Source: Escherichia virus TH29. Taken from it: DNA of 53,648 nt. The position numbers and the translations under genes were made by a program. The stretch is taken from sequence record MT446403.1. One strand, 5' to 3'. The notes under the pieces are model-generated. The model did no database searches. It had not been told where the DNA came from and worked only from the letters and a program-made list of their open reading frames with translations. This document shows positions 7,601 through 53,648 of the stretch, piece after piece (the first letter of the stretch is position 1; each line of letters begins with the position of its first letter).

Positions 7601-7849
7601 TCAGAATCCTTTAGTGTACCCAACAGTTTTGCGCAGAATGATTTCATCATTTGAATCATCTGGCTCTAATTCGATTTCAATATTGACAACAATATTGTCG
7701 CTAAAAGTACATGCCTTACTTGAATCAAAGAACTTTACAGCATTATACTTATCTGACTCATTTACTTTAATCCACTTCACAGAACGAACAGTAAAGATTT
7801 GTCCATCTTGCAGGTCTTTAAAGTAAGCCGCTTTAGTAACAGTATCCAT
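7601..7849 (-). CDS. Hypothetical protein
   Basis: 82-aa ORF with AGGAGA RBS; first gene downstream of the 7.86-9.1 kb non-coding region. Confidence 0.55.
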   Translation of the reverse strand: MDTVTKAAYFKDLQDGQIFTVRSVKWIKVNESDKYNAVKFFDSSKACTFSDNIVVNIEIELEPDDSNDEIILRKTVGYTKGF

Positions 7850-8133
7850 TTTATTCTCCTAAGTTAAAAGAAAACTCCCGTCATAACGATTGTGGAGGTC
7901 TTGTGTTACCTTAATCCACCTTAAAGAATCAGGGAGTTACATATTAGTCTGTGTGTGCTGCTCTCGGTTACTTCCTAGTATTGCGAAGCTCTTGCATTCC
8001 CGCAAACCACACCTTTTGCACAGACCGTATGTGACACAACAAGTGCCGAAAACTACAATGATTAGCTTGGAGACATAATCTCTCTAAAATCTGTCACACA
8101 ATTTCAGCAGAATTTACAGAGATTTGGTCTTAT

Positions 8134-8149
8134 TCACATGCAACTAATG
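8134..8149 (-). promoter_or_regulatory. Conserved motif copy tcacatgCAACTAATGa (variant)
   Basis: Inside the 7.86-9.1 kb non-coding control region. Confidence 0.35.
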
Positions 8150-8342
8150 ATAAATGGACATGCTTAATTGCAACCAATTCATCTGCCAAATAGACGAATT
8201 TAGTCACAATCAAACATGCATCATTAATTACAGGTTTGCTCCTATCTTGGAATGTATTTGGCACATCAAGAAGTGGCGCAACAGGTACGGAAAACCGACC
8301 ATGTACAGCATAATAAAACTAATTAAATAAAGGGTTTTATCC

Positions 8343-8360
8343 CAATATTGTCACAATATT
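8343..8360. repeat. Tandem palindrome CAATATTG-tca-CAATATT, operator-like
   Basis: CAATATTG is self-complementary; the same 18-mer recurs at 8592-8609 with degenerate copies nearby and at 11383-11601; often followed by ACATGC. Confidence 0.5.
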
Positions 8361-8591
8361 TACATGCGATGATAAAGCCTTCGCTTGGCTGGAAGCCAGT
8401 ATTCATGCGGGTTGCAAGAATATTGGGTCAATACTGATATAGCTATTACATGCGAAATTGGCACAAATACTGTTACAAAATTAACATGCCGGATTGGTAG
8501 ACAATTGTATCTTCGAGGTGATTAGTCCTCTAACAATTCTGCCACATTCTAACATGCCAATTTGTAGCAATATTTACATGCCATACTATGA

Positions 8592-8609
8592 CAATATTGT
8601 CACAATATT
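8592..8609. repeat. Second exact copy of CAATATTG-tca-CAATATT
   Basis: Identical 18-mer to 8343-8360. Confidence 0.5.
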
Positions 8610-8983
8610 TGTTGCTCAAATTCGGGTGCGGCTACGAGACTAATCTCGATGCTTTGCTCCGACTCTTCTCTTCTTTCGAATTCTGATTGAAAGAAAGAAG
8701 CATGTCCAAAAGTTCCAGTCTTGCCAAAGTTATCTCCCGGCTTGTGGGTGGGCCTTGATAATAGGAGAATACAATATTGGAACAATTGGTCATGCTTGTA
8801 TTGAAGAACAGTTTCGAATGATAATCCTACTTCACACATGGTTGTTGGAGCTTTGTCTGGCCAAAGACAGGGAGTTCAATGATTGCCACATCATTACAAC
8901 ACTGTGTGTTTAGTTGACATGCTGAAATGTTTCTAGAATGATTTCAACATGACATGCGGAATACTTCTCCGTATTCTGTTACT

Positions 8984-9000
8984 TCACATCCAACTAATGT
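8984..9000 (-). promoter_or_regulatory. Conserved motif copy tcacatCCAACTAATGT
   Basis: Just downstream (minus sense) of the RNAP terminator and upstream of the repeat-rich region. Confidence 0.45.
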
Positions 9001-9062
9001 CGAATATTGAAACAATATTACATGCAGCAATATTGCTTGAATATTGGGAATTAAAGGATTTA

Positions 9063-9109
9063 ATTAATAAAGAATAAAGAAAGGGCCATCACCTTTCGAT
9101 GACAGCCCT
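9063..9109 (-). terminator. Rho-independent terminator after the RNA polymerase gene
   Basis: Hairpin AGGGC/GCCCT plus CATC/GATG at 9082-9109, followed on the minus strand by UUCUUUAUUCUUUAUU, directly after the stop at 9117-9119. Confidence 0.6.
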
Positions 9110-9116
9110 AGGTCTA

Positions 9117-11057
9117 TTACTGGCAGAAGTAGTAAGCGTGTTCGCTCATAAGCAGCTCTTCAGTAACAATGTTCTCGTGGTACATGTTGATGCCACCAAG
9201 TTGCTTAGACAGAGATTCAAACTGGTTATTATGAACAAAGATTTCAATATAAGCAGAACGAATAACTTCCATCATTTTAGGAGCATCAGCCAAGCAGCAA
9301 CGGAAACAATCGTGAATTGAAGTAAAGCCACGAAGACCAGCTTCTTTAGCTTTGACTGCAACAGTACGAGCAACCAATGCGTCAATACCTTGAATGTAGT
9401 TAACAACGAAGGTACGCTTGAATTCTTCTTTAGTTGGATTGGACTCACGAATGGTCCAAGGCTTATTCTCCTGAATCTGACCAAAGATGACACGAGTTTG
9501 ACTATCAACACGAATGCTGAATGCATCACAAACATCACGAGATGGGAAGCAAGGCTTCATTACAACTTGACCATCAGTGTGCTTATAGGTGATGTACTCT
9601 TTGTTGAGTTCAACACAACGAGCAAATGCAGCATCAGCAGCTTTCTCAATGAACATGTTAATCTTAGCACCCAATGCGTTATGGATTGCTTCTACACACA
9701 GTTCAGCAAATGCCTCAGCTTTCTCCATAGGAATCTGGAGCGCTTCTGTCATGTATGCAATGAAGTCAGAAGAACCAGTTAATGCAGCTTTACCACCACC
9801 ATATTGGATAGCCATGTATGGAGTTTTGATAAACTTACGACCAGCTTTCGGATTCAAGAATTCATCCATAATTTCAGCGGATGGTTTCATTGAAGAACGG
9901 TCTAATAACTTCAACAGTTCACGGAGAGATAACTGGTATGGGTCAGATGCTTTAGTCTCAGAATCAACCAGACCTGTAGCACGAGCCATTTCCATGTTAC
10001 CAGCAATGAATGCCAGATATTGAGTACCAGAACATTTAGCATCTAAGCCAAAGCCTACACGAGAATCACACTCACCTGTAGTCTCAAACTTGAACCAATC
10101 CAGAGCCAGACGAACATAAGTGAATGGCTTAGAAGGACGCTCACCTTTAGGCATGTTCAGCATACGAGCCAAAGAACCAGCAGGATTCTGTGCAACATAG
10201 GTTAAACGTTTTGCAGAAGTCCAGTCTCCACCAGCAATATCTTCCAGCTCAAGCATGAACATGTTGTATGCCAGAGTTGTTGAACCATCAGCATTAAACT
10301 TGCTCACAGTGTTCTCAACATTGTGGGAATACAGGCAACGAGCAAAGTCAGATGATTGTGGGTTAGGACCAGCACATGCTACATGATACAAACGACCACG
10401 GTTATCAGCAAAGTAGTCAGAGAACAGAGTGTCCTGACCAACCATTGCTACAGCATTGTTCCAAACATGGAGTTCAGTCTGGATTGCTTCTGGCATCTGT
10501 AAGCCACCAAATGTACGTTGTTCTAACATGGAAGAGATAACCCTAACCATTGTTGCATCAACGTGATATTCAGTATCTTGCAGGAATTCGATTGCAGCTT
10601 TCAGAGTTTTGGATGGCTTAACTTTGCCACCTTTAACGAAAGGCTTGCGACGAGATTCAGTTGTTACCTTCTCAGTGAATGGAACTGAGGTATCTTTGGT
10701 TGTAACCAGTTCAACCCATGCATCAGTCATCTGGAACGATTTGTCCTCGTTCATGGTGATGAAACCGAAGTGTTTAGCCAGACCAATCAGGTTGATAGCT
10801 GGGTCAACATAGTGCATTGACTTTAAGTCGTTGTTGTAACGGTTGGCATCAGCAATGGAAGCAGAAGCCAGTTCAACCATCGAGATAGCTGGAATAACGT
10901 CATCACGCGTGAAAGACGTCATCATCTTGAATATGGCTAAGGCAGCAATAGCACAAGTCTGAGGCTGCATATAGTTCTGCTTCTCTTTGGCACGGTATAC
11001 CAGAGCGGTGATAGCAGGGACAACAGATTTGATAGTTTGAGTAGTGATAGTAGTCAT
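9117..11057 (-). CDS. Single-subunit (T7-like) DNA-dependent RNA polymerase, compact form of about 646 aa
   Basis: Motifs align to T7 RNAP: DNRGRLYHV, LDAKCSGTQYLA (motif A), RKFIKTPYMAIQYGGG (motif B), IHDCFRCCLAD (motif C). Start set at MTTITTQ (ATG 11055-11057, GGAGA RBS), not the ORF-track TTG at 11144. Confidence 0.85.
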   Translation of the reverse strand: MTTITTQTIKSVVPAITALVYRAKEKQNYMQPQTCAIAALAIFKMMTSFTRDDVIPAISMVELASASIADANRYNNDLKSMHYVDPAINLIGLAKHFGFITMNEDKSFQMTDAWVELVTTKDTSVPFTEKVTTESRRKPFVKGGKVKPSKTLKAAIEFLQDTEYHVDATMVRVISSMLEQRTFGGLQMPEAIQTELHVWNNAVAMVGQDTLFSDYFADNRGRLYHVACAGPNPQSSDFARCLYSHNVENTVSKFNADGSTTLAYNMFMLELEDIAGGDWTSAKRLTYVAQNPAGSLARMLNMPKGERPSKPFTYVRLALDWFKFETTGECDSRVGFGLDAKCSGTQYLAFIAGNMEMARATGLVDSETKASDPYQLSLRELLKLLDRSSMKPSAEIMDEFLNPKAGRKFIKTPYMAIQYGGGKAALTGSSDFIAYMTEALQIPMEKAEAFAELCVEAIHNALGAKINMFIEKAADAAFARCVELNKEYITYKHTDGQVVMKPCFPSRDVCDAFSIRVDSQTRVIFGQIQENKPWTIRESNPTKEEFKRTFVVNYIQGIDALVARTVAVKAKEAGLRGFTSIHDCFRCCLADAPKMMEVIRSAYIEIFVHNNQFESLSKQLGGINMYHENIVTEELLMSEHAYYFCQ

Positions 11058-11124
11058 TTGTAAGTCTCCAAGATTGTGTATGATTTGAATGAAACGGATT
11101 ATAATAGCGTAGCCATTACACAAT

Positions 11125-11140
11125 TCACGTCCAACTAATA
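11125..11140 (-). promoter_or_regulatory. Conserved motif copy tcacgtCCAACTAATa
   Basis: About 70 bp upstream of the RNAP start codon. Confidence 0.45.
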
Positions 11141-11326
11141 TCACAAACCTGTGCCATTGTTAGCACAGCACAGGGACTTTGACCTTGACTCATAAGCGAA
11201 GCGCCTAACTTGGTGTTGTTTGAAAGCCGATAGGCTGCAGGAAAAAGTTGGGGCAGGGACCGTATTTAAGTCCGATAGGACGTTGGGCTTCCCCTCCCCG
11301 CCACCTCAAAAATAAAAATAATATCG

Positions 11327-11401
11327 CCACAATTCTAGTCTCGTCAATATCGTTACAATTCTAGTCTCATTAATATTGTAGCAATTCGAGTCTCATTAAT
11401 T
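11327..11401. repeat. Three tandem 24-25 bp direct repeats (iteron-like)
   Basis: ccacaattctagtctcgtcaatat / gttacaattctagtctcattaatat / gtagcaattcgagtctcattaatt, head to tail. Confidence 0.6.
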
Positions 11402-11452
11402 CCGTAACAATATTTAAATTAAAAAAAATTATATAAAAATTTTTTATAACAT
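11402..11452. promoter_or_regulatory. Strongly AT-rich tract next to the iterons, possible DNA unwinding element
   Basis: ccgtaacaatatttaaattaaaaaaaattatataaaaattttttataac is nearly pure A/T. Confidence 0.4.
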
Positions 11453-11717
11453 AGTCGGACTTCTGTTCGAACAAATTTCGGCTAGATACAGCTGACCGAT
11501 TGTGAACGAATCTATGTCTAGGTACAGTTGACCGACCATGTACCATTTGGTTTTGAATTTTACGCATTCCTAATATTACTCTTAATATTGTAGCAATATT
11601 GGGAATAAATAAATATTTAACTTACTTATTTTATTCTAGCTCAAAGAGAAACGACGCTAACGCATCGAATCTCTTCTCACATATTAACTGACAAACGTCA
11701 GCCTTCACCATATCCAA

Positions 11718-12836
11718 TCATAATTCAAATCCACCGAGTGCATTAGTATCAACTTCAGAGTCAATTTGCCCAACCAGGTAGGAACTAATCTCAGTCTCCT
11801 GTGGAGCAACCTGTACAGCATCCGAATTCAACCATGCATTAATCCACGGAATAGGATTCGTAGCATCCTTAAATGGAGCATCTAATCCAACTGCTTGCAT
11901 ACGAATATTCGTGATATATTCCACATATCCACACAGAATTTGCTTGTTTAAGCCTATCATTGAGCCATCTTTGAACAGATAATCGGCCCAATCTTTCTCT
12001 TGTTGAGCAGCATCTTCGAACAATTTCTGGCATTCTTCACGACATTCTTGAGCAATTTCGCCCATTTCTGGGTCATCTTTTCCACTCGCCAGAATATTCA
12101 ACATGTGCTGAGTTCCGGTCAAATGGAGTGCTTCATCTCGTGCAATCAGTCGAATAATCTTGGCATTTCCTTCCATTAGCTTACGTTCAGCGAAGGCAAA
12201 TGAGCAAGCAAAGCTAACATAGAAGCGAATTGCTTCCAGTGCGTTGATAGACATGAGGCATAAATAGAGCTTCTTCTTCAACTCACGAAGACTAATTTCA
12301 TGACCGACATGATTCCCTTCCCCAAACAACTGCCATAATGCAGTAAGTTGTTGGAGTTCGTCGTAATATTGGGAGATGCCAATTGCCCGTGCTTTGATAT
12401 GTTCGTTAGTTACGATTTCATCAAAGATTACGCTTGGGTCTGTAACGATGTTACGGATAATGTGAGTGTAAGAACGTGAATGGATAGTCTCGGAGAAGGA
12501 CCAAGTTTCAATCCAAGTTTCAAGCTCAGGAATGCTAACGATTGGAAGCAAAACTGTGTTAGGCCCACGTCCCTGAATGGAGTCCAGAAGGATTTGATAG
12601 CGCAAATTACTGGTGAAAATGTGCTGCTCATTTGGTGGGAGCTTCTGATAATCAATACGGTCTTGTGAAACATCCACCTCTTCTGGTCGCCAGAAGAATG
12701 ACAATTGTTTCTCAATCAACTTCTCGAATATGCCATACTTCTGCTGGTCATAGCGAGCAACGTTGACGTTCTGACCAAAGAACATTGGTTCTAATAGTTG
12801 GTTATTCTTGGTTTGTGAAAAGGTAGTGTAAGACAT
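11718..12836 (-). CDS. nrdB: Class Ia ribonucleotide reductase small subunit (NrdB), very close to enterobacterial NrdB
   Basis: 372 aa; N-terminus [22 protein letters not shown] and internal [29 protein letters not shown] are near-identical to E. coli NrdB as recalled from memory (roughly 80 percent, not computed). Confidence 0.9.
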
Positions 12837-23564: not shown

Positions 23565-26500
23565 TTATCTACGTTCCATTGCACCATTACCCATGTTGAT
23601 TGTTTGGGTAACAGTTTGACCGTTCGGAGTTGACACGGTTGCAGACGCTTGCTTATTGTTCACAGTAGCTTTGACTTCAACGTTAACTACAGTGGCCTGT
23701 GTCTGACCATAAGACAGTCCATTTCTGGTGAAGCCAGTTGCACCTTCTGCAATAGAATCGCCCTGAGAAGCCCATTCACGGTACTTCTTGACGCGGTTCT
23801 GTGCCTGTAGAGGAACAGCATTGAGCCAGTCGGTTCCGTGTTTGTTGATAGCATCATCAACAGTTCCAGCACCATCCGTATACGCCGCCATAGCCTTCTC
23901 AGCGTCACCATTATAACGCTTGAGCATTGCATCATAGTAGTCACGACCAACGCGAGCACGCTCTTCCAGCGAGTTATCACGGGCAGGTTTAACACCAAAT
24001 CCTGGGTCACGGGAAGTTGAATCAAGAACCTGCATACGACCTTTAGCACCAGTCGGAGATGTAACCACCGAACCATCTGCGTTCAAATCGCGGTTCCCTG
24101 ACTCCTCTCCTGCGATAAAGTCATATACCGTTCTGGTAGTATCAGCTAAACCATTTGACGCTGTACGCGCTACTCTGGCTGCATCTCCACCTGCTTCGAT
24201 AAATGAACTCCCGTAGGATATTGCAGCTTGCGGAACTGCGTATCCTGGCAGCACCCCAGCACGCTCCGTCTGCGCTATTCCTAGCTGTGCAACGCCATCG
24301 GCATACTGTGAGTTGGCTCCACGGCTTACGTTCTCCTGAGCCTCGTTCACGCTGTAATCTGTACGGTCATAGGCGCGAGCCATGCCATCCAGACCTGCCA
24401 TCTCCATAGCCCCAGCGATACGAGCCTGACTCCAGCCCCGCTCCTGACCACGTTCACGCATTACCCGCGCTAAGGCCACAGGGTCGCCCTGTGCCGCACG
24501 AATGTCGCCAATAGTGATAAGACCACGGGTTCCCTGAACGATGTTGACAGCGCCGCTGGGGTCGCCATTCAGGAGGGTGTTATAGGCACTATGTGTGGTT
24601 CGATTGAGTCGGCCAGCTTGTTGCTGATTAAGCCCCAACATTTCCAAGCCCTGCGACATGGAAGAATACTCATTAGGGTTATTGACACCAGCGTCTAAAG
24701 AGTTTCCGTAGAAATCGTTCAGACCTTCGAGCGCCTCGTTACCAATCTGGGTAGCACCAATAGCCATACCCGCCACACGACCCCACGGAGTCATCATGAG
24801 AGCATTCATCGCACCATTGGATAGTGAGCCTATACTACCGCCAGCCACGCCAGCAGCCAATGCGCCACCAGCACGACCGAAGTCATCTGAGAAGCTGCCG
24901 CCAGTGTTCCAACCACGACCACCGCCGCCACCGGAACCACCTCCACCAATGCCATAACTACTAGCATCGAAGGTGTCCCAGAAGCCGCCACCACCGCCAC
25001 GACCACCATTGTCCCCGAAGTCGGCATCTTGTCCACGCAGCTTGTTTTCTTCCTGAGCAGCGAGGATACCTTTCTTGACAGATACTGCCATCAGGTCATT
25101 ACCAGTTGTGCTGTCAGAGCCTACGGCAGAGGCTGTGGCTTCACCAACTCCAGCACTGGTACGGTTGCCTATGAATGGGTCATCGGCTGTACCAGCAGCG
25201 GCAGAGTAGCCACGCGTTGACTTCTGCTTAACATCCTTCCAGATGCCATCGCCAGTCATTGCAGCACGAGCACCTTTGATTAAATCATCATTGGACAAGT
25301 CTGAATTAGCTTCAACAAACTCTCGACCAGCATTAAGACGACCAATAGTAGAATCAATCTTATCTTTGTTGCGTTCGTACCATCCCTCGTCTTTCTCAAT
25401 CCATTCCGATACCGTCTTGTCTCCGATTGTCTGAGAGAACAATGCACGACTACGGCCAGATACAAGCATACCAAATTGAATTTGGTCGAGGTAATCCTTA
25501 TGCTCACCAGCAGATAGGTTAGAAAACTTCTTAGCCCTTTCAGGGTTCTTGTGTTCCCAAATCGCGTCATCACCGATAAGGCCATCTGGGGAATACATGA
25601 ACGACGGATAATTGTCATTTGTTATTGCGCCAGCTTGCTCAATGTCGAATCCAAACTCTTTGGCGACACGGTTACGAGCAACTTCTTCCGTCCGATGACC
25701 TGCTTCGAACATTCGTTGGGTAAATTCACTTGGCCCCTTTCCGCGTTGTAGGCCAATTTTATCAACCATTGCAGCCCAAGGTCGAGTATATTCATTGTTA
25801 CCAAGAAATGAACCGACAGTTGAGCCAGTAATGTCATATTGCTTGCGGAAGTCTAACCATTCCTGAGTGCCCTGTTCCATGTTGTGATAACGGATTGGAC
25901 CTTCTTGCGGAGCTGGTTGTGGAGCAGAGTCCAAATTAGATATAGCAATGCTCTCGCGACGGGCGCGAGCAGAGTTCCAACTTGTTGGAGAATCAAGTTG
26001 TGCAAGAAACTCTGTAGAGGGACTCAGTTCTACAGGTCCAGTATTCCTTAAACGTTCAGCAGGGTCGAATGTTCGAGCGACTTCTGCCTCATTATATTGA
26101 TGAGCATTCTCAAGAACGCCACGAATAGATGAACCAGAGTAACGAGGGTCGTCACCAATATCTTTCTTAAGGTTATCGTAACCGGAACGAACATCTGCAA
26201 TGTCTGCGTAACGAGAAGCAGAGTCCAGAATTAAATCTCTGTCAGAAGATTGAGTGCGATATGCATTCATTCCTCTTTCAGCACCACCAGAATAAACCTT
26301 TGCCGCAGATTTAACTACGCCAGAAACATCTTGGTAGAGCGTTTTGCTTGCATCAGACCAACCTGGAGAACCAGACAAGGATGCAGATAAAGAATATTCA
26401 GCCTTAATGCCACCACCAAACGAACCAAGAGGTAAACCAGATGCGTTAAGAGGCTGTCGAGGATGCTGAATATCACCGACAATAGATTCGGAGCCAAGTT

Positions 26501-27242
26501 GTGGCAATGAATCCATGTATGAAAGTTTTGGCCCCGACTTATTTCCTACATTCATTGCAGATACGGCAGCAACTTCTCGGAAGTTTTGCGGTAATTCTGA
26601 TTCTAAACGTTTGGCTACACGATAAACATCTCGTGCATAGCGGTCTGGGTTGTCGTATTGTTCACGGTCAACATACATGTGAGCAAGATAACCAAATGAC
26701 TTGGCAATATCTCCACGGTTTGTGGAATATTCATCCATAATATTACCGGTGTAGTGTCCGGCAAGTTCAGGCATTATATCTTGATGACCTGCAAGAGTAT
26801 CTCGCATGTACGAGTTAAGCATTCCCCAATGACCTTCCGGCTTGTTGGGGTTGGCTTTAGGCATGTGCATCCAAACATCATCAGTGGATACACCAAGTTG
26901 TTCCATGTATGCGTGAACTGCTTCTACATGGTGTCCTGGTCCGTTCATTGCAGCATGGAATGTTTCAGTCAGCCCAGCACCAGAAATCATCTGTGCTACA
27001 TGTGCTGCATCTGAAATCATATCAGAAGTCCCGTATGAAGTTTCATCCTCATACATCTGGGAATCTGGTTCGCCCAAAAGCTGTGAATTTGTTTCCATCC
27101 AACCTGACGCAGCACTTGATTCAAGTTGCTGGGCCATATCTCGTTTGCGCATACCAGGATTGAAGGACAGACCGTACTGAGCACCCATGCCGATTAGTTC
27201 GGCCTCGGATAGCTTCATTAAATCTTTTAAGTTCTTAGCCAT
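23565..27242 (-). CDS. Tail tape measure protein with C-terminal lytic transglycosylase (SLT) domain
   Basis: 1225 aa; Gly-rich central tract (GGGGGFWDTF..., GGGGSGGGGGRGW); C-terminal ESGNRDLNADG...GAKGRMQVLDSTSRD...AYTDGAG matches SLT motifs. Confidence 0.8.
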   Translation of the reverse strand: MAKNLKDLMKLSEAELIGMGAQYGLSFNPGMRKRDMAQQLESSAASGWMETNSQLLGEPDSQMYEDETSYGTSDMISDAAHVAQMISGAGLTETFHAAMNGPGHHVEAVHAYMEQLGVSTDDVWMHMPKANPNKPEGHWGMLNSYMRDTLAGHQDIMPELAGHYTGNIMDEYSTNRGDIAKSFGYLAHMYVDREQYDNPDRYARDVYRVAKRLESELPQNFREVAAVSAMNVGNKSGPKLSYMDSLPQLGSESIVGDIQHPRQPLNASGLPLGSFGGGIKAEYSLSASLSGSPGWSDASKTLYQDVSGVVKSAAKVYSGGAERGMNAYRTQSSDRDLILDSASRYADIADVRSGYDNLKKDIGDDPRYSGSSIRGVLENAHQYNEAEVARTFDPAERLRNTGPVELSPSTEFLAQLDSPTSWNSARARRESIAISNLDSAPQPAPQEGPIRYHNMEQGTQEWLDFRKQYDITGSTVGSFLGNNEYTRPWAAMVDKIGLQRGKGPSEFTQRMFEAGHRTEEVARNRVAKEFGFDIEQAGAITNDNYPSFMYSPDGLIGDDAIWEHKNPERAKKFSNLSAGEHKDYLDQIQFGMLVSGRSRALFSQTIGDKTVSEWIEKDEGWYERNKDKIDSTIGRLNAGREFVEANSDLSNDDLIKGARAAMTGDGIWKDVKQKSTRGYSAAAGTADDPFIGNRTSAGVGEATASAVGSDSTTGNDLMAVSVKKGILAAQEENKLRGQDADFGDNGGRGGGGGFWDTFDASSYGIGGGGSGGGGGRGWNTGGSFSDDFGRAGGALAAGVAGGSIGSLSNGAMNALMMTPWGRVAGMAIGATQIGNEALEGLNDFYGNSLDAGVNNPNEYSSMSQGLEMLGLNQQQAGRLNRTTHSAYNTLLNGDPSGAVNIVQGTRGLITIGDIRAAQGDPVALARVMRERGQERGWSQARIAGAMEMAGLDGMARAYDRTDYSVNEAQENVSRGANSQYADGVAQLGIAQTERAGVLPGYAVPQAAISYGSSFIEAGGDAARVARTASNGLADTTRTVYDFIAGEESGNRDLNADGSVVTSPTGAKGRMQVLDSTSRDPGFGVKPARDNSLEERARVGRDYYDAMLKRYNGDAEKAMAAYTDGAGTVDDAINKHGTDWLNAVPLQAQNRVKKYREWASQGDSIAEGATGFTRNGLSYGQTQATVVNVEVKATVNNKQASATVSTPNGQTVTQTINMGNGAMERR

Positions 27243-42876: not shown

Positions 42877-43122
42877 TTAAATTTCAATAATGTGAGAGTC
42901 AATGTCCAGGTCGGACAGGATAGATTGTGTTACTGCGAAATCTTCCGATTCCTTTAATGCTTTCAGGGCACTTTCGTAGGTGATATCGCCCTGATAATCA
43001 CTTCCAAATAATGCCGAGGCGTGCATCTCAATTGCAGACACCGCCAGTTGTGTGGCCGGAATATCTCCAGCCGCTTGATGGAGTTCCATCTGTTGTTTGT
43101 CGTACAAGGCTAAAACACGCAT
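42877..43122 (-). CDS. Small acidic protein
   Basis: 81 aa with about 14 Asp/Glu versus 4 Lys/Arg. Confidence 0.45.
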   Translation of the reverse strand: MRVLALYDKQQMELHQAAGDIPATQLAVSAIEMHASALFGSDYQGDITYESALKALKESEDFAVTQSILSDLDIDSHIIEI

Positions 43123-52285: not shown

Positions 52286-52923
52286 AGGAACTCTCCAATT
52301 TTCGATTCGATGTTTGTGACGCTTCTCTCATCTTTTGGCCTTGTGGAAACAGCCACAGGGTAGCGCAGGAAGCCCGATTTCCGGGCCGTAGCCTACCGTT
52401 TGTGTCAATTCTGGATAACTGCATTGGCGAAGGGTTACTCCCGTTAGGGTGCGATACGCTAATCACATGAGTGTCGTCGCCTTACGGCTCAGGCGTGTCA
52501 CAGAGGCTTTGCAACCCTTCCCAATACATTCACCCAAATACCAGCTTTGGCGTAGCTGGTGGCTCTGTTTTGTGCGGATTATGCCACTCTAAGCCCTGTT
52601 TGTCCGACTTCCTCGGAGCACCAGCGGCTTGTGGCACAAACCTATTTTAGAATGACTAACATAAGCATGAGGCATAACCCTCTAATTATTCAGCCCTAAC
52701 AGCTTGCTTATTCAGTACCAATTCAACCCAATACATACACAACTATATACAATAGCGAACTATCTGCGAAAACTATCCGGCCCTATGGCCTAAGTTAAAG
52801 TTAATAGTGTGTGATGGAAACATTCCATCGAAAATAACTTTGCAGAATGAGTCGAACATTCTCACACGTCTAGCGGCCGCAACGGTCTACCGAGTTACAA
52901 AGTTATTATCTGATGTTGTTTCT

Positions 52924-53648
52924 TCAATTCCAACTAATGTCGAATACTCTTCTTGCAAACAGGACAAGTGATGAATCTGTATGCAAAGTATCCTCGGTCA
53001 TTCTTTCCTGTGTACATCTTTAAGTCAGAGAACACGTAAGATATTGCAGAGAAACATACCCACACTGGCGTGTGAATGTTACGTTATCCTTTTCCAAAAC
53101 TTTTATCATTTCAATTCCAACTAATGTTTCAGAATTATTCCAATATTCCAAACAAAAAGAATAATAAGAATAAATTAAAAATAAATGAAGAAAGTTCTTG
53201 ACACCCATTTGGCGATAGGTGTATAATGCCTTTCTTCCCTAAGAGGTCAGAATCAAATCCCACTAATGTTTCAGACGAAGTGCCGAAGGCGAATCCTCTC
53301 CCAAACCCGCTTGGAACAAGATGCCTCCGGCCTGGAACTATACTGCTTTCCAATCTGAATCAAACAGTTCCTTTGGTCTTGAATAAATTATCGAATTAAT
53401 TCCCAAGAAAGTGTGATTTCCATACTTCTTAACTTCCTGGTAAGCAAATCCATCTACCCAATTACCGCAGTGGGTTTTAATCTTTGTAGCAAACAGAATT
53501 CGGTAGTAGTGACCACGTGGCTGGTGGAAGAGAATATCTTCTGGCTTGATTGAGTTGATATTTAAATCAGACATTTAAGAACAATACCCCTTCGGAGAAG
53601 ATGTAGTCACTGCCGTAATCTTTGGTGATTGCATCCCAATCAATATAT
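52924..53648. repeat. Right copy of direct terminal repeat (identical to 1-725)
   Basis: Exact repeat of the left end, including the three motif copies, the sigma70 promoter (53198-53227) and the 78-aa ORF (53338-53574). Confidence 0.9.

Follow-up and report, generated by a model that had tools for sequence, protein, structure and literature searches.

A window of 53,648 nt, the whole stretch of Escherichia virus TH29 DNA analyzed here (MT446403.1), carries on its minus strand a gene for a single-subunit RNA polymerase (RNAP) of 646 aa. T7 RNAP has 883 aa. The locus raises the question of which parts of a T7-type enzyme have been given up, whether the loss is peculiar to this phage, and how the remaining protein might recognize and open its promoters.

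The gene, its start codon, and its relatives

The coding sequence and the Shine-Dalgarno sequence that precedes it are placed as follows.

9117..11057, minus strand: RNA polymerase coding sequence, 646 aa, stop codon included; orthologue of phiEcoM-GJ1 gp01
11066..11069, minus strand: Shine-Dalgarno sequence GGAG, 8 nt 5′ of the ATG at 11057; ST32 ORF1 is listed with the same site

At the DNA level, the gene is 93–97% identical to the annotated RNAP genes of phiEcoM-GJ1, ST32, MLP1, and PYps23T (97% to both TH25 and PYps23T; 93.6% to phiEcoM-GJ1 gp01, annotated as RNA polymerase), so the protein is already known. It has been annotated since 2008, when the phiEcoM-GJ1 genome paper referred in its title to a “podovirus-like RNA polymerase,” and its 646-aa length is tabulated for ST32. 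The protein matches Pfam PF00940 (E=2.8e-18) and PHROG 414 (E=3e-94), has the right-hand polymerase fold common to T7 and mitochondrial RNAPs, and is encoded by one uninterrupted ORF as a single chain, with no division into two subunits of the gp15 + gp16 type. We consider it probable that it is a phage-encoded, naturally minimized T7-family single-subunit RNAP of a Carltongylesvirus-like myophage of the Chaseviridae, orthologous to phiEcoM-GJ1 gp01. A search of the accessible literature found no biochemical studies of any Chaseviridae RNAP.

A gene can also look short when its start codon is misassigned, when a frameshift intervenes, or when its N-terminal part is encoded separately upstream, but here such an artefact is very improbable. 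An ORF is listed at the locus for 9117..11144 on the minus strand; started at the GTG at 11144 it would encode 675 aa, and one database representative is called at 704 aa. Against this, the length is kept in homologues down to 35% identity, and the AF2 model shows good packing from residue 6 on. An upstream exon or frameshift that would lengthen the N-terminus, envisaged in the initial annotation, was looked for in the 660-bp interval from nrdB to the ATG (11058-11717) and not found; stops occur there in all three frames, and the sole upstream ORF is 65 aa long. The GTG start was rejected, as its 29-codon extension would cross both the 18-nt motif and the terminal-repeat boundary described below, and the ATG fits the 646 aa of ST32 ORF1 and the span across which the PYps23T gene aligns.

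Compactness is conserved throughout a broad clade, and a 646-aa RNAP is ordinary within its own lineage. Nearly all of 113 homologues, down to 35% identity, have 626-670 aa, and among 99 homologues the median length is 643 aa, with a median of 218 residues ahead of the RGR element. The RNAPs of the Chaseviridae themselves (phiEcoM-GJ1 gp01, ST32, MLP1, PYps23T ORF082, Y2, and PM1) range from 631 to 648 aa. An exhaustive profile search returned 112 clusters at E<1e-30, mostly of 640-780 aa and matching from near the N-terminus of the profile, whereas classical RNAPs of 780-900 aa match the compact profile only from position ~143-165 onward. For one uncultured compact-RNAP protein, the isolate relatives were solely Chaseviridae, at 25-27% identity. 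Describing the enzyme as unusually compact is thus apt with regard to T7 RNAP, which is ~237 aa longer, but not with regard to its kin, as the same length is common to every Chaseviridae RNAP and to more than 100 metagenomic clusters.

A complete catalytic domain and a pared-down N-terminal domain

The catalytic motifs and the region aligned with the specificity loop are the following.

10392..10400, minus strand: RGR of the DxRGR element, residues 220-222, equivalent to T7 423-425 (D218-x-R220-G-R222)
10026..10046, minus strand: Motif A, LDAKCSG, residues 338-344; D339 corresponds to T7 D537
9795..9839, minus strand: Motif B, with KTPYMAIQYGG at 411-421; R407/K411/Y419/G420 correspond to T7 R627/K631/Y639/G640
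9438..9560, minus strand: beta-ribbon, residues ~500-540, aligned with the T7 specificity loop region
9303..9317, minus strand: Motif C, IHDCF, residues 581-585; H582/D583 correspond to T7 H811/D812

The catalytic domain has all its parts (palm, fingers, the specificity-loop ribbon, and a C-terminal foot), with a thumb of about half the T7 length. Motifs A, B, and C and the RGR element, all reported in the initial annotation, were located in the protein and aligned with the T7 catalytic residues, and these residues are invariant in 47 homologues. A phmmer search of the whole protein against PDB gave only marginal T7 matches (E ~0.005). Profile alignment with hhalign against 20 classical T7-like RNAPs placed query residues 149-639 on T7 313-879 with a probability of 100% (E=1e-39). 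The polymerase domain accordingly comprises residues 149-646, or 498 aa, vs. 571 aa for T7 313-883, with a thumb region of ~45 aa vs. 81 in T7. The ribbon at ~500-540, which corresponds to the specificity loop (T7 739-770), is full length, variable between subgroups, and conserved within them. At one position of the domain, T7 H784 is replaced by Q556.

The greater part of the size difference lies further upstream. The initial count of ~219 residues ahead of RGR vs. ~420 in T7 was borne out almost exactly (219 and 422), so that 203 aa of the deficit of ~237 aa precede this element. Because the profile alignment begins at query 149, equivalent to T7 313 and hence to the boundary between the N-terminal and C-terminal domains, the N-terminal domain has 148 aa vs. 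312 in T7. For T7 RNAP, the N-terminal domain comprises residues 1-312, with the C-helix at 28-71, the promoter-binding domain at 72-150 and 191-267, the H subdomain at 151-190, AT-rich contacts at 93-101, the intercalating loop at 232-242, and the C-linker at 251-296; the thumb follows at 330-410 and the specificity loop at 739-770 (PMC11617373). The corresponding features in the TH29 protein are given below.

10614..11057, minus strand: N-terminal domain, residues 1-148 (T7 counterpart 312 aa); residues 1-88 have no significant T7 match
10728..10760, minus strand: beta-hairpin, residues 100-110, aligned with the T7 intercalating hairpin region 227-246
10608..10652, minus strand: residues 136-150, a conserved basic loop, RRKPFVKGGKVKPSK, with an invariant R136; R136/R137 align with T7 R291/R292

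A broader profile that included relatives of intermediate length was used to reach residues N-terminal of 149, and it aligned residues 89-225 with T7 215-428 at a probability of 96%. Within this alignment, residues 89-148 correspond to T7 215-312 and contain the last promoter-binding helix (87-96), a shortened hairpin, and a shortened C-linker, with P126 at the position of T7 P270. The hairpin at 100-110 is 9 aa shorter than that of T7, has a short charged tip (NEDKS), and offers no equivalent of V237. Residues 1-88 gave only a non-significant resemblance to T7 67-146 (probability 2%), in which the AT-rich loop is deleted, and no basic loop resembling the AT-rich recognition loop (T7 93-101) was seen in residues 20-35. 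No alignment covers the H subdomain (T7 151-190), the element that in T7 refolds to build the RNA exit channel, query residues 1-88 facing the whole of T7 1-214. Neither the full protein nor residues 1-212 matched Pfam RPOL_N (PF14700, T7 36-322) at E<=1; T7 RNAP, as a positive control, matched at E=1.2e-34, and N4 gp15 was likewise without a match. An hmmsearch of the N-terminal profile against PDB returned only spurious matches to YetJ.

Judged by alignment, the promoter-binding N-terminal domain is pared down, not missing. The N-terminal extension and C-helix of T7, its AT-rich recognition loop, and its H subdomain appear to have no counterpart in this RNAP. The initial annotation had noted that most of the T7-type domain appears absent, naming an intact domain as the finding that would speak against this. 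The domain is not intact when aligned with T7, and its 148 aa and the missing RPOL_N match agree with a large loss; the retention of residues 89-148, however, means that parts of it persist. The failure to match RPOL_N might also be expected if the N-terminal ~120 residues were a winged-helix DNA-binding module that had been swapped in for the T7-type promoter-binding domain. This domain swap is unlikely: a Foldseek search with the N-terminal model gave no significant match (best E-value 0.1), the helix and hairpin that would make up the “wing” correspond to T7 215-246 according to the 96%-probability profile alignment, and the helix that would serve for recognition, 87-96, consists mainly of hydrophobic residues and has no conserved polar ones.

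Genome ends and a flanking 18-nt motif

Based on its sequence, the window is that of a Carltongylesvirus-like Chaseviridae myophage. It has a myovirus gene set with a T7-like RNAP and co-oriented genes, all long ORFs being on the minus strand, and 24 kb of it match TH24 at 95% identity. Genomes of this family are linear, are not permuted, and end in terminal repeats of ~3 kb (ICTV profile), the repeats being known here from the relatives. Bases 1-725 of the window are identical to 52924-53648, and the window is therefore a circularized assembly whose first base is arbitrary. In coding-strand direction the RNAP gene stands between nrdB upstream and small early genes downstream, the same order as in phiEcoM-GJ1, where the RNAP is gp01. 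A review likewise describes the Chaseviridae RNAP as early in the genome, with similar promoters used throughout (PMC8472413). The impression that the gene comes after the structural genes and away from the early end is an artefact, because the window is circularized and in relatives the RNAP lies in the left terminal repeat, before the early genes.

For PYps23T, a direct terminal repeat of 2,339 bp has been demonstrated experimentally and the ends have been mapped. Its record opens 72 nt ahead of the RNAP ATG and holds a second full copy at the right end, and PYps23T 1-2013 corresponds to window 11129-9117. The RNAP is also within the terminal repeat in the 4HA13 and PM1 records. The elements around the gene in the window, in coding-strand order, are as follows.

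11320..11397, minus strand: three tandem 26-nt repeats resembling sigma-70 promoters; phiEcoM-GJ1 has its annotated promoter at the third, TTGACG-18-TATTAT
11148..11174, minus strand: terminator-like hairpin, just upstream of the 18-nt motif and the repeat boundary
11124..11141, minus strand: motif copy ATATTAGTTGGACGTGAA, candidate promoter, 67-84 nt upstream of the ATG; the PYps23T left end falls inside it, between window positions 11130 and 11129
8989..11129, minus strand: equivalent of the PYps23T direct terminal repeat, holding only the RNAP gene and its terminator
9072..9109, minus strand: intrinsic terminator with a 12-bp stem, GAAA loop, and T-run, 8 nt past the stop codon
8983..9000, minus strand: motif copy ACATTAGTTGGATGTGAA, the “putative phage promoter 1” of phiEcoM-GJ1; the PYps23T right end lies at the same motif position

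That the gene is framed by repeat-rich DNA and a clean terminator, as first described, agrees with this map: repeats occur on both flanks, and the terminator directly follows the stop codon (9109-9082, dG -20.2 kcal/mol, z -3.9). The distance from the stop codon to the downstream motif is 116 bp here vs. 314 bp in PYps23T. Rfam gave no matches over 7800-11800. The case for host-type promoters is drawn solely from the tandem repeats and the phiEcoM-GJ1 annotation, because a sigma-70 scan of 8000-12000 found 10 sites vs. 12.2 in shuffled sequence, which is no excess.

In the phiEcoM-GJ1 record, nine sites are labeled “putative phage promoters,” with the 18-nt motif ACATTAGTTGGATGTGAA as consensus, and the window contains 10 matches (<=3 mismatches) vs. 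0.08 expected, all on the coding strand; a position-weight-matrix scan found none on the opposite strand. Eight copies are unique once the assembly overlap is set aside, and a weaker copy lies at 42993. They sit on either side of the RNAP gene and across the early and replication region. The ICTV profile states that Chaseviridae promoters “have not yet been identified.” The motif flanking the RNAP gene is the likely phage promoter.

Comparison with mapped ends adds a second aspect. PYps23T begins with CGTGAA... and ends with ...ATTAGTTGGA, so that both termini fall at the same position in the two RNAP-flanking copies, between ATTAGTTGGA and YGTGAA. The left ends of 4HA13 and PM1 are ~140-200 bp further upstream, off the motif. 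Because both PYps23T ends fall inside it, the motif could be a DNA-processing site. It might then serve not as an RNAP promoter but as a site of genome-end formation or nicking by the terminase or an HNH enzyme, with the true promoters elsewhere. The coincidence of the two mapped ends, the confinement of all copies to one strand, the several HNH endonucleases encoded by this phage group (one adjoining the terminase), and the ICTV statement would all be in keeping with such a site. We nevertheless find this rather unlikely, as ~8 copies stand upstream of early gene blocks where two would do for the ends, and the left ends of two relatives are not at the motif. Moreover, the roles of promoter and end site are not mutually exclusive. 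T7 RNAP has been implicated in concatemer processing.

Proposed promoter recognition by a minimal polymerase

Compared with phiEcoM-GJ1 gp01 and the other Chaseviridae RNAPs, the TH29 enzyme has the same neighbors (nrdB upstream and small early genes downstream), the same flanking 18-nt motif, and no essential difference. Compared with T7 RNAP (883 aa; PDB 1CEZ, 1QLN, and 3E2E), it appears to have nothing that corresponds to T7 residues 1-66, the AT-rich loop at 93-101, or the H subdomain at 151-190. Yeast mitochondrial Rpo41 (PDB 6YMV) is a much bigger protein that carries additional N-terminal domains and requires Mtf1, and the N4 mini-vRNAP (~1,100 aa; PDB 3Q0A) is not compact, is carried in the virion, and recognizes hairpin promoters. 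Parallel to it in size is N4 RNAPII, which has 673 aa and a truncated thumb and N-terminal domain, and which needs gp2 and gp1 (PMC4496689; PMC7145618). The TH29 enzyme shares the truncated thumb and N-terminal domain. However, N4 RNAPII is a heterodimer (gp15, 269 aa, and gp16, 404 aa; PDB 6DT7) that works with gp2/gp1 on single-stranded promoters, in contrast to the one chain and the duplex motif candidate found here, and hhalign against a single N4 gp15 sequence gave no match.

The parallel with N4 RNAPII in size and architecture suggests that the polymerase could be factor-dependent, in the style of that enzyme or of mitochondrial RNAPs, its trimmed N-terminal domain recruiting a phage cofactor for promoter recognition or melting and the protein being inactive alone on dsDNA. 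The AT-rich loop and hairpin V237 appear to have no counterparts, and the downstream DNA has many small early ORFs without known function, both of which would suit such an arrangement. On the other hand, the protein is a single chain, its specificity-loop region has kept its whole length and shows no marked acidity, the candidate promoter is a conserved 18-nt duplex motif unlike the minimal AT-rich -7..+2 middle promoter of N4, and a tblastn search of the window found no homologue of N4 gp1 or gp2. Dependence on a cofactor, be it an ssDNA-binding protein such as gp2, gp1, or Drc or an unrelated one, is possible, though somewhat unlikely.

The asymmetric 18-nt duplex motif and the retained specificity loop argue for direct, T7-style promoter recognition. 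The lack of an H subdomain and, it appears, of an AT-rich loop, together with a hairpin that is short and charged, speaks for melting and promoter escape unlike those of T7. These two steps may resemble those of N4 RNAPII. Autonomous melting in particular is uncertain, given the short charged tip of the hairpin and the lack there of anything equivalent to T7 V237. Under direct recognition, the RNAP would be made from a left-end gene, ahead of the small early genes as in relatives, and would then transcribe the early and replication genes from the motif, which would be read mainly by the specificity loop together with the reduced N-terminal domain. Because it has no H subdomain, the enzyme probably passes from initiation to elongation without the large refolding seen in T7. 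In its most far-reaching form, the proposal would make the Chaseviridae RNAP the smallest natural, autonomous, promoter-specific, single-chain RNAP of the T7 family, with a non-refolding N-terminal domain and a promoter that also bounds the terminal repeat, coupling transcription to genome-end formation; this full combination we hold to be distinctly improbable.

The ICTV profile calls the Chaseviridae enzyme “large.” N4 RNAPII, at 673 aa, has itself been counted among the smallest of the family, and that this lineage is smaller still seems to be unreported in the searchable literature, as does the source of the saving, a pared-down promoter-binding domain together with a shortened thumb. Should the enzyme prove autonomous on the 18-nt motif, it would have practical interest as a compact orthogonal RNAP and would serve as a natural test of which N-terminal elements of T7 RNAP are dispensable.

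The 18-nt motif and the genome ends

The experimentally mapped ends of the relative PYps23T (position 1 of its left end, L002, and the end of its right end, L003) both fall at the identical position, ATTAGTTGGA|YGTGAA, within copies of the 18-nt motif that flank the RNAP gene. The corresponding flanking copies in the window are:

11124-11141, minus strand, 18-nt motif flanking the RNAP gene
8983-9000, minus strand, 18-nt motif flanking the RNAP gene

The boundaries of the terminal repeat may be marked by the candidate promoter motif as well. Past the RNAP stop codon, similarity between the window and PYps23T restarts precisely at the motif; the intervening segment measures 116 bp in the window (9001-9116) vs. 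314 bp in PYps23T (L002:2014-2327), where a 66-aa ORF was called. The left ends of 4HA13 and PM1, relatives whose terminal repeat contains the RNAP gene, lie ~140-200 bp further upstream, away from the motif.

Copies of the motif, ACATTAGTTGGATGTGAA, were found on the coding strand only, with 0.08 matches expected:

187, 329, 5002, 8133, 8983, 11124, 50985 and 52923, minus strand, 18-nt motif
42993, weaker copy of the 18-nt motif

These are concentrated in the early and replication region; the scan of the window returned no copy above threshold ahead of the structural genes. The copy at 52923-52940 contains the boundary of an assembly overlap: positions 1-725 match 52924-53648 at 100% identity. 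This 725-bp overlap marks the window as a circularised assembly, with a unique length of 52,923 bp. The overlap boundary has no correspondence with the terminal repeat of the relatives.

Repeats around the RNAP gene

Just beyond the terminal-repeat equivalent, upstream of the RNAP gene, lies a tandem array:

11320-11397, minus strand, 26-nt repeat in three tandem copies, each resembling a sigma-70 promoter

The third repeat is the promoter annotated in phiEcoM-GJ1. Because the array is outside the terminal-repeat equivalent, it would precede only the right-end copy of the RNAP gene, or copies within concatemers. Downstream of the gene, ~1 kb of DNA (window ~8100-9080) holds few ORFs and many direct and inverted repeats of the AATATTG-N5-AATATT type, related copies of which also occur upstream (11578-11603). 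These repeats are possibly an origin or operator array; a search of the stretch against Rfam gave no match.

Composition and tRNA content

GC content rises to 0.557 at 24001-25000, vs. ~0.44 in adjacent segments, inside a 1,225-aa ORF (23565..27242). ARAGORN found no tRNA gene in the whole window, whereas phiEcoM-GJ1 has a tRNA-Arg; this absence fits the reported variation in tRNA presence across PYps23T-group phages.

The compact RNAP and its relatives in other records

Residue Q556 (window 9390-9392) aligns with H784 of T7 RNAP, and the glutamine is invariant in the compact-RNAP clade. Titles cited in PMC11617373 link H784 to both ribose discrimination and start-site selection. An RNAP gene 96% identical to that of the window occurs in PP952070.1 (H11; 53,660 bp), deposited as 'Staphylococcus phage Pel53' with host S. 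hyicus; the gene belongs to the enterobacterial phage group, and the Staphylococcus host label looks doubtful. Further hits lie in Lelliottia and Pseudomonas genomes. A Hafnia alvei chromosome (NJFP02000002.1, 2778075-2800021; L006) encodes a compact RNAP, 52% identical, next to genes for an integrase, a holin and a cell-wall hydrolase (Hydrolase_2); the early-type genes ArdA and TerB/TerC come after these. This arrangement points to the integration of a relative of the phage group, which is considered strictly lytic.
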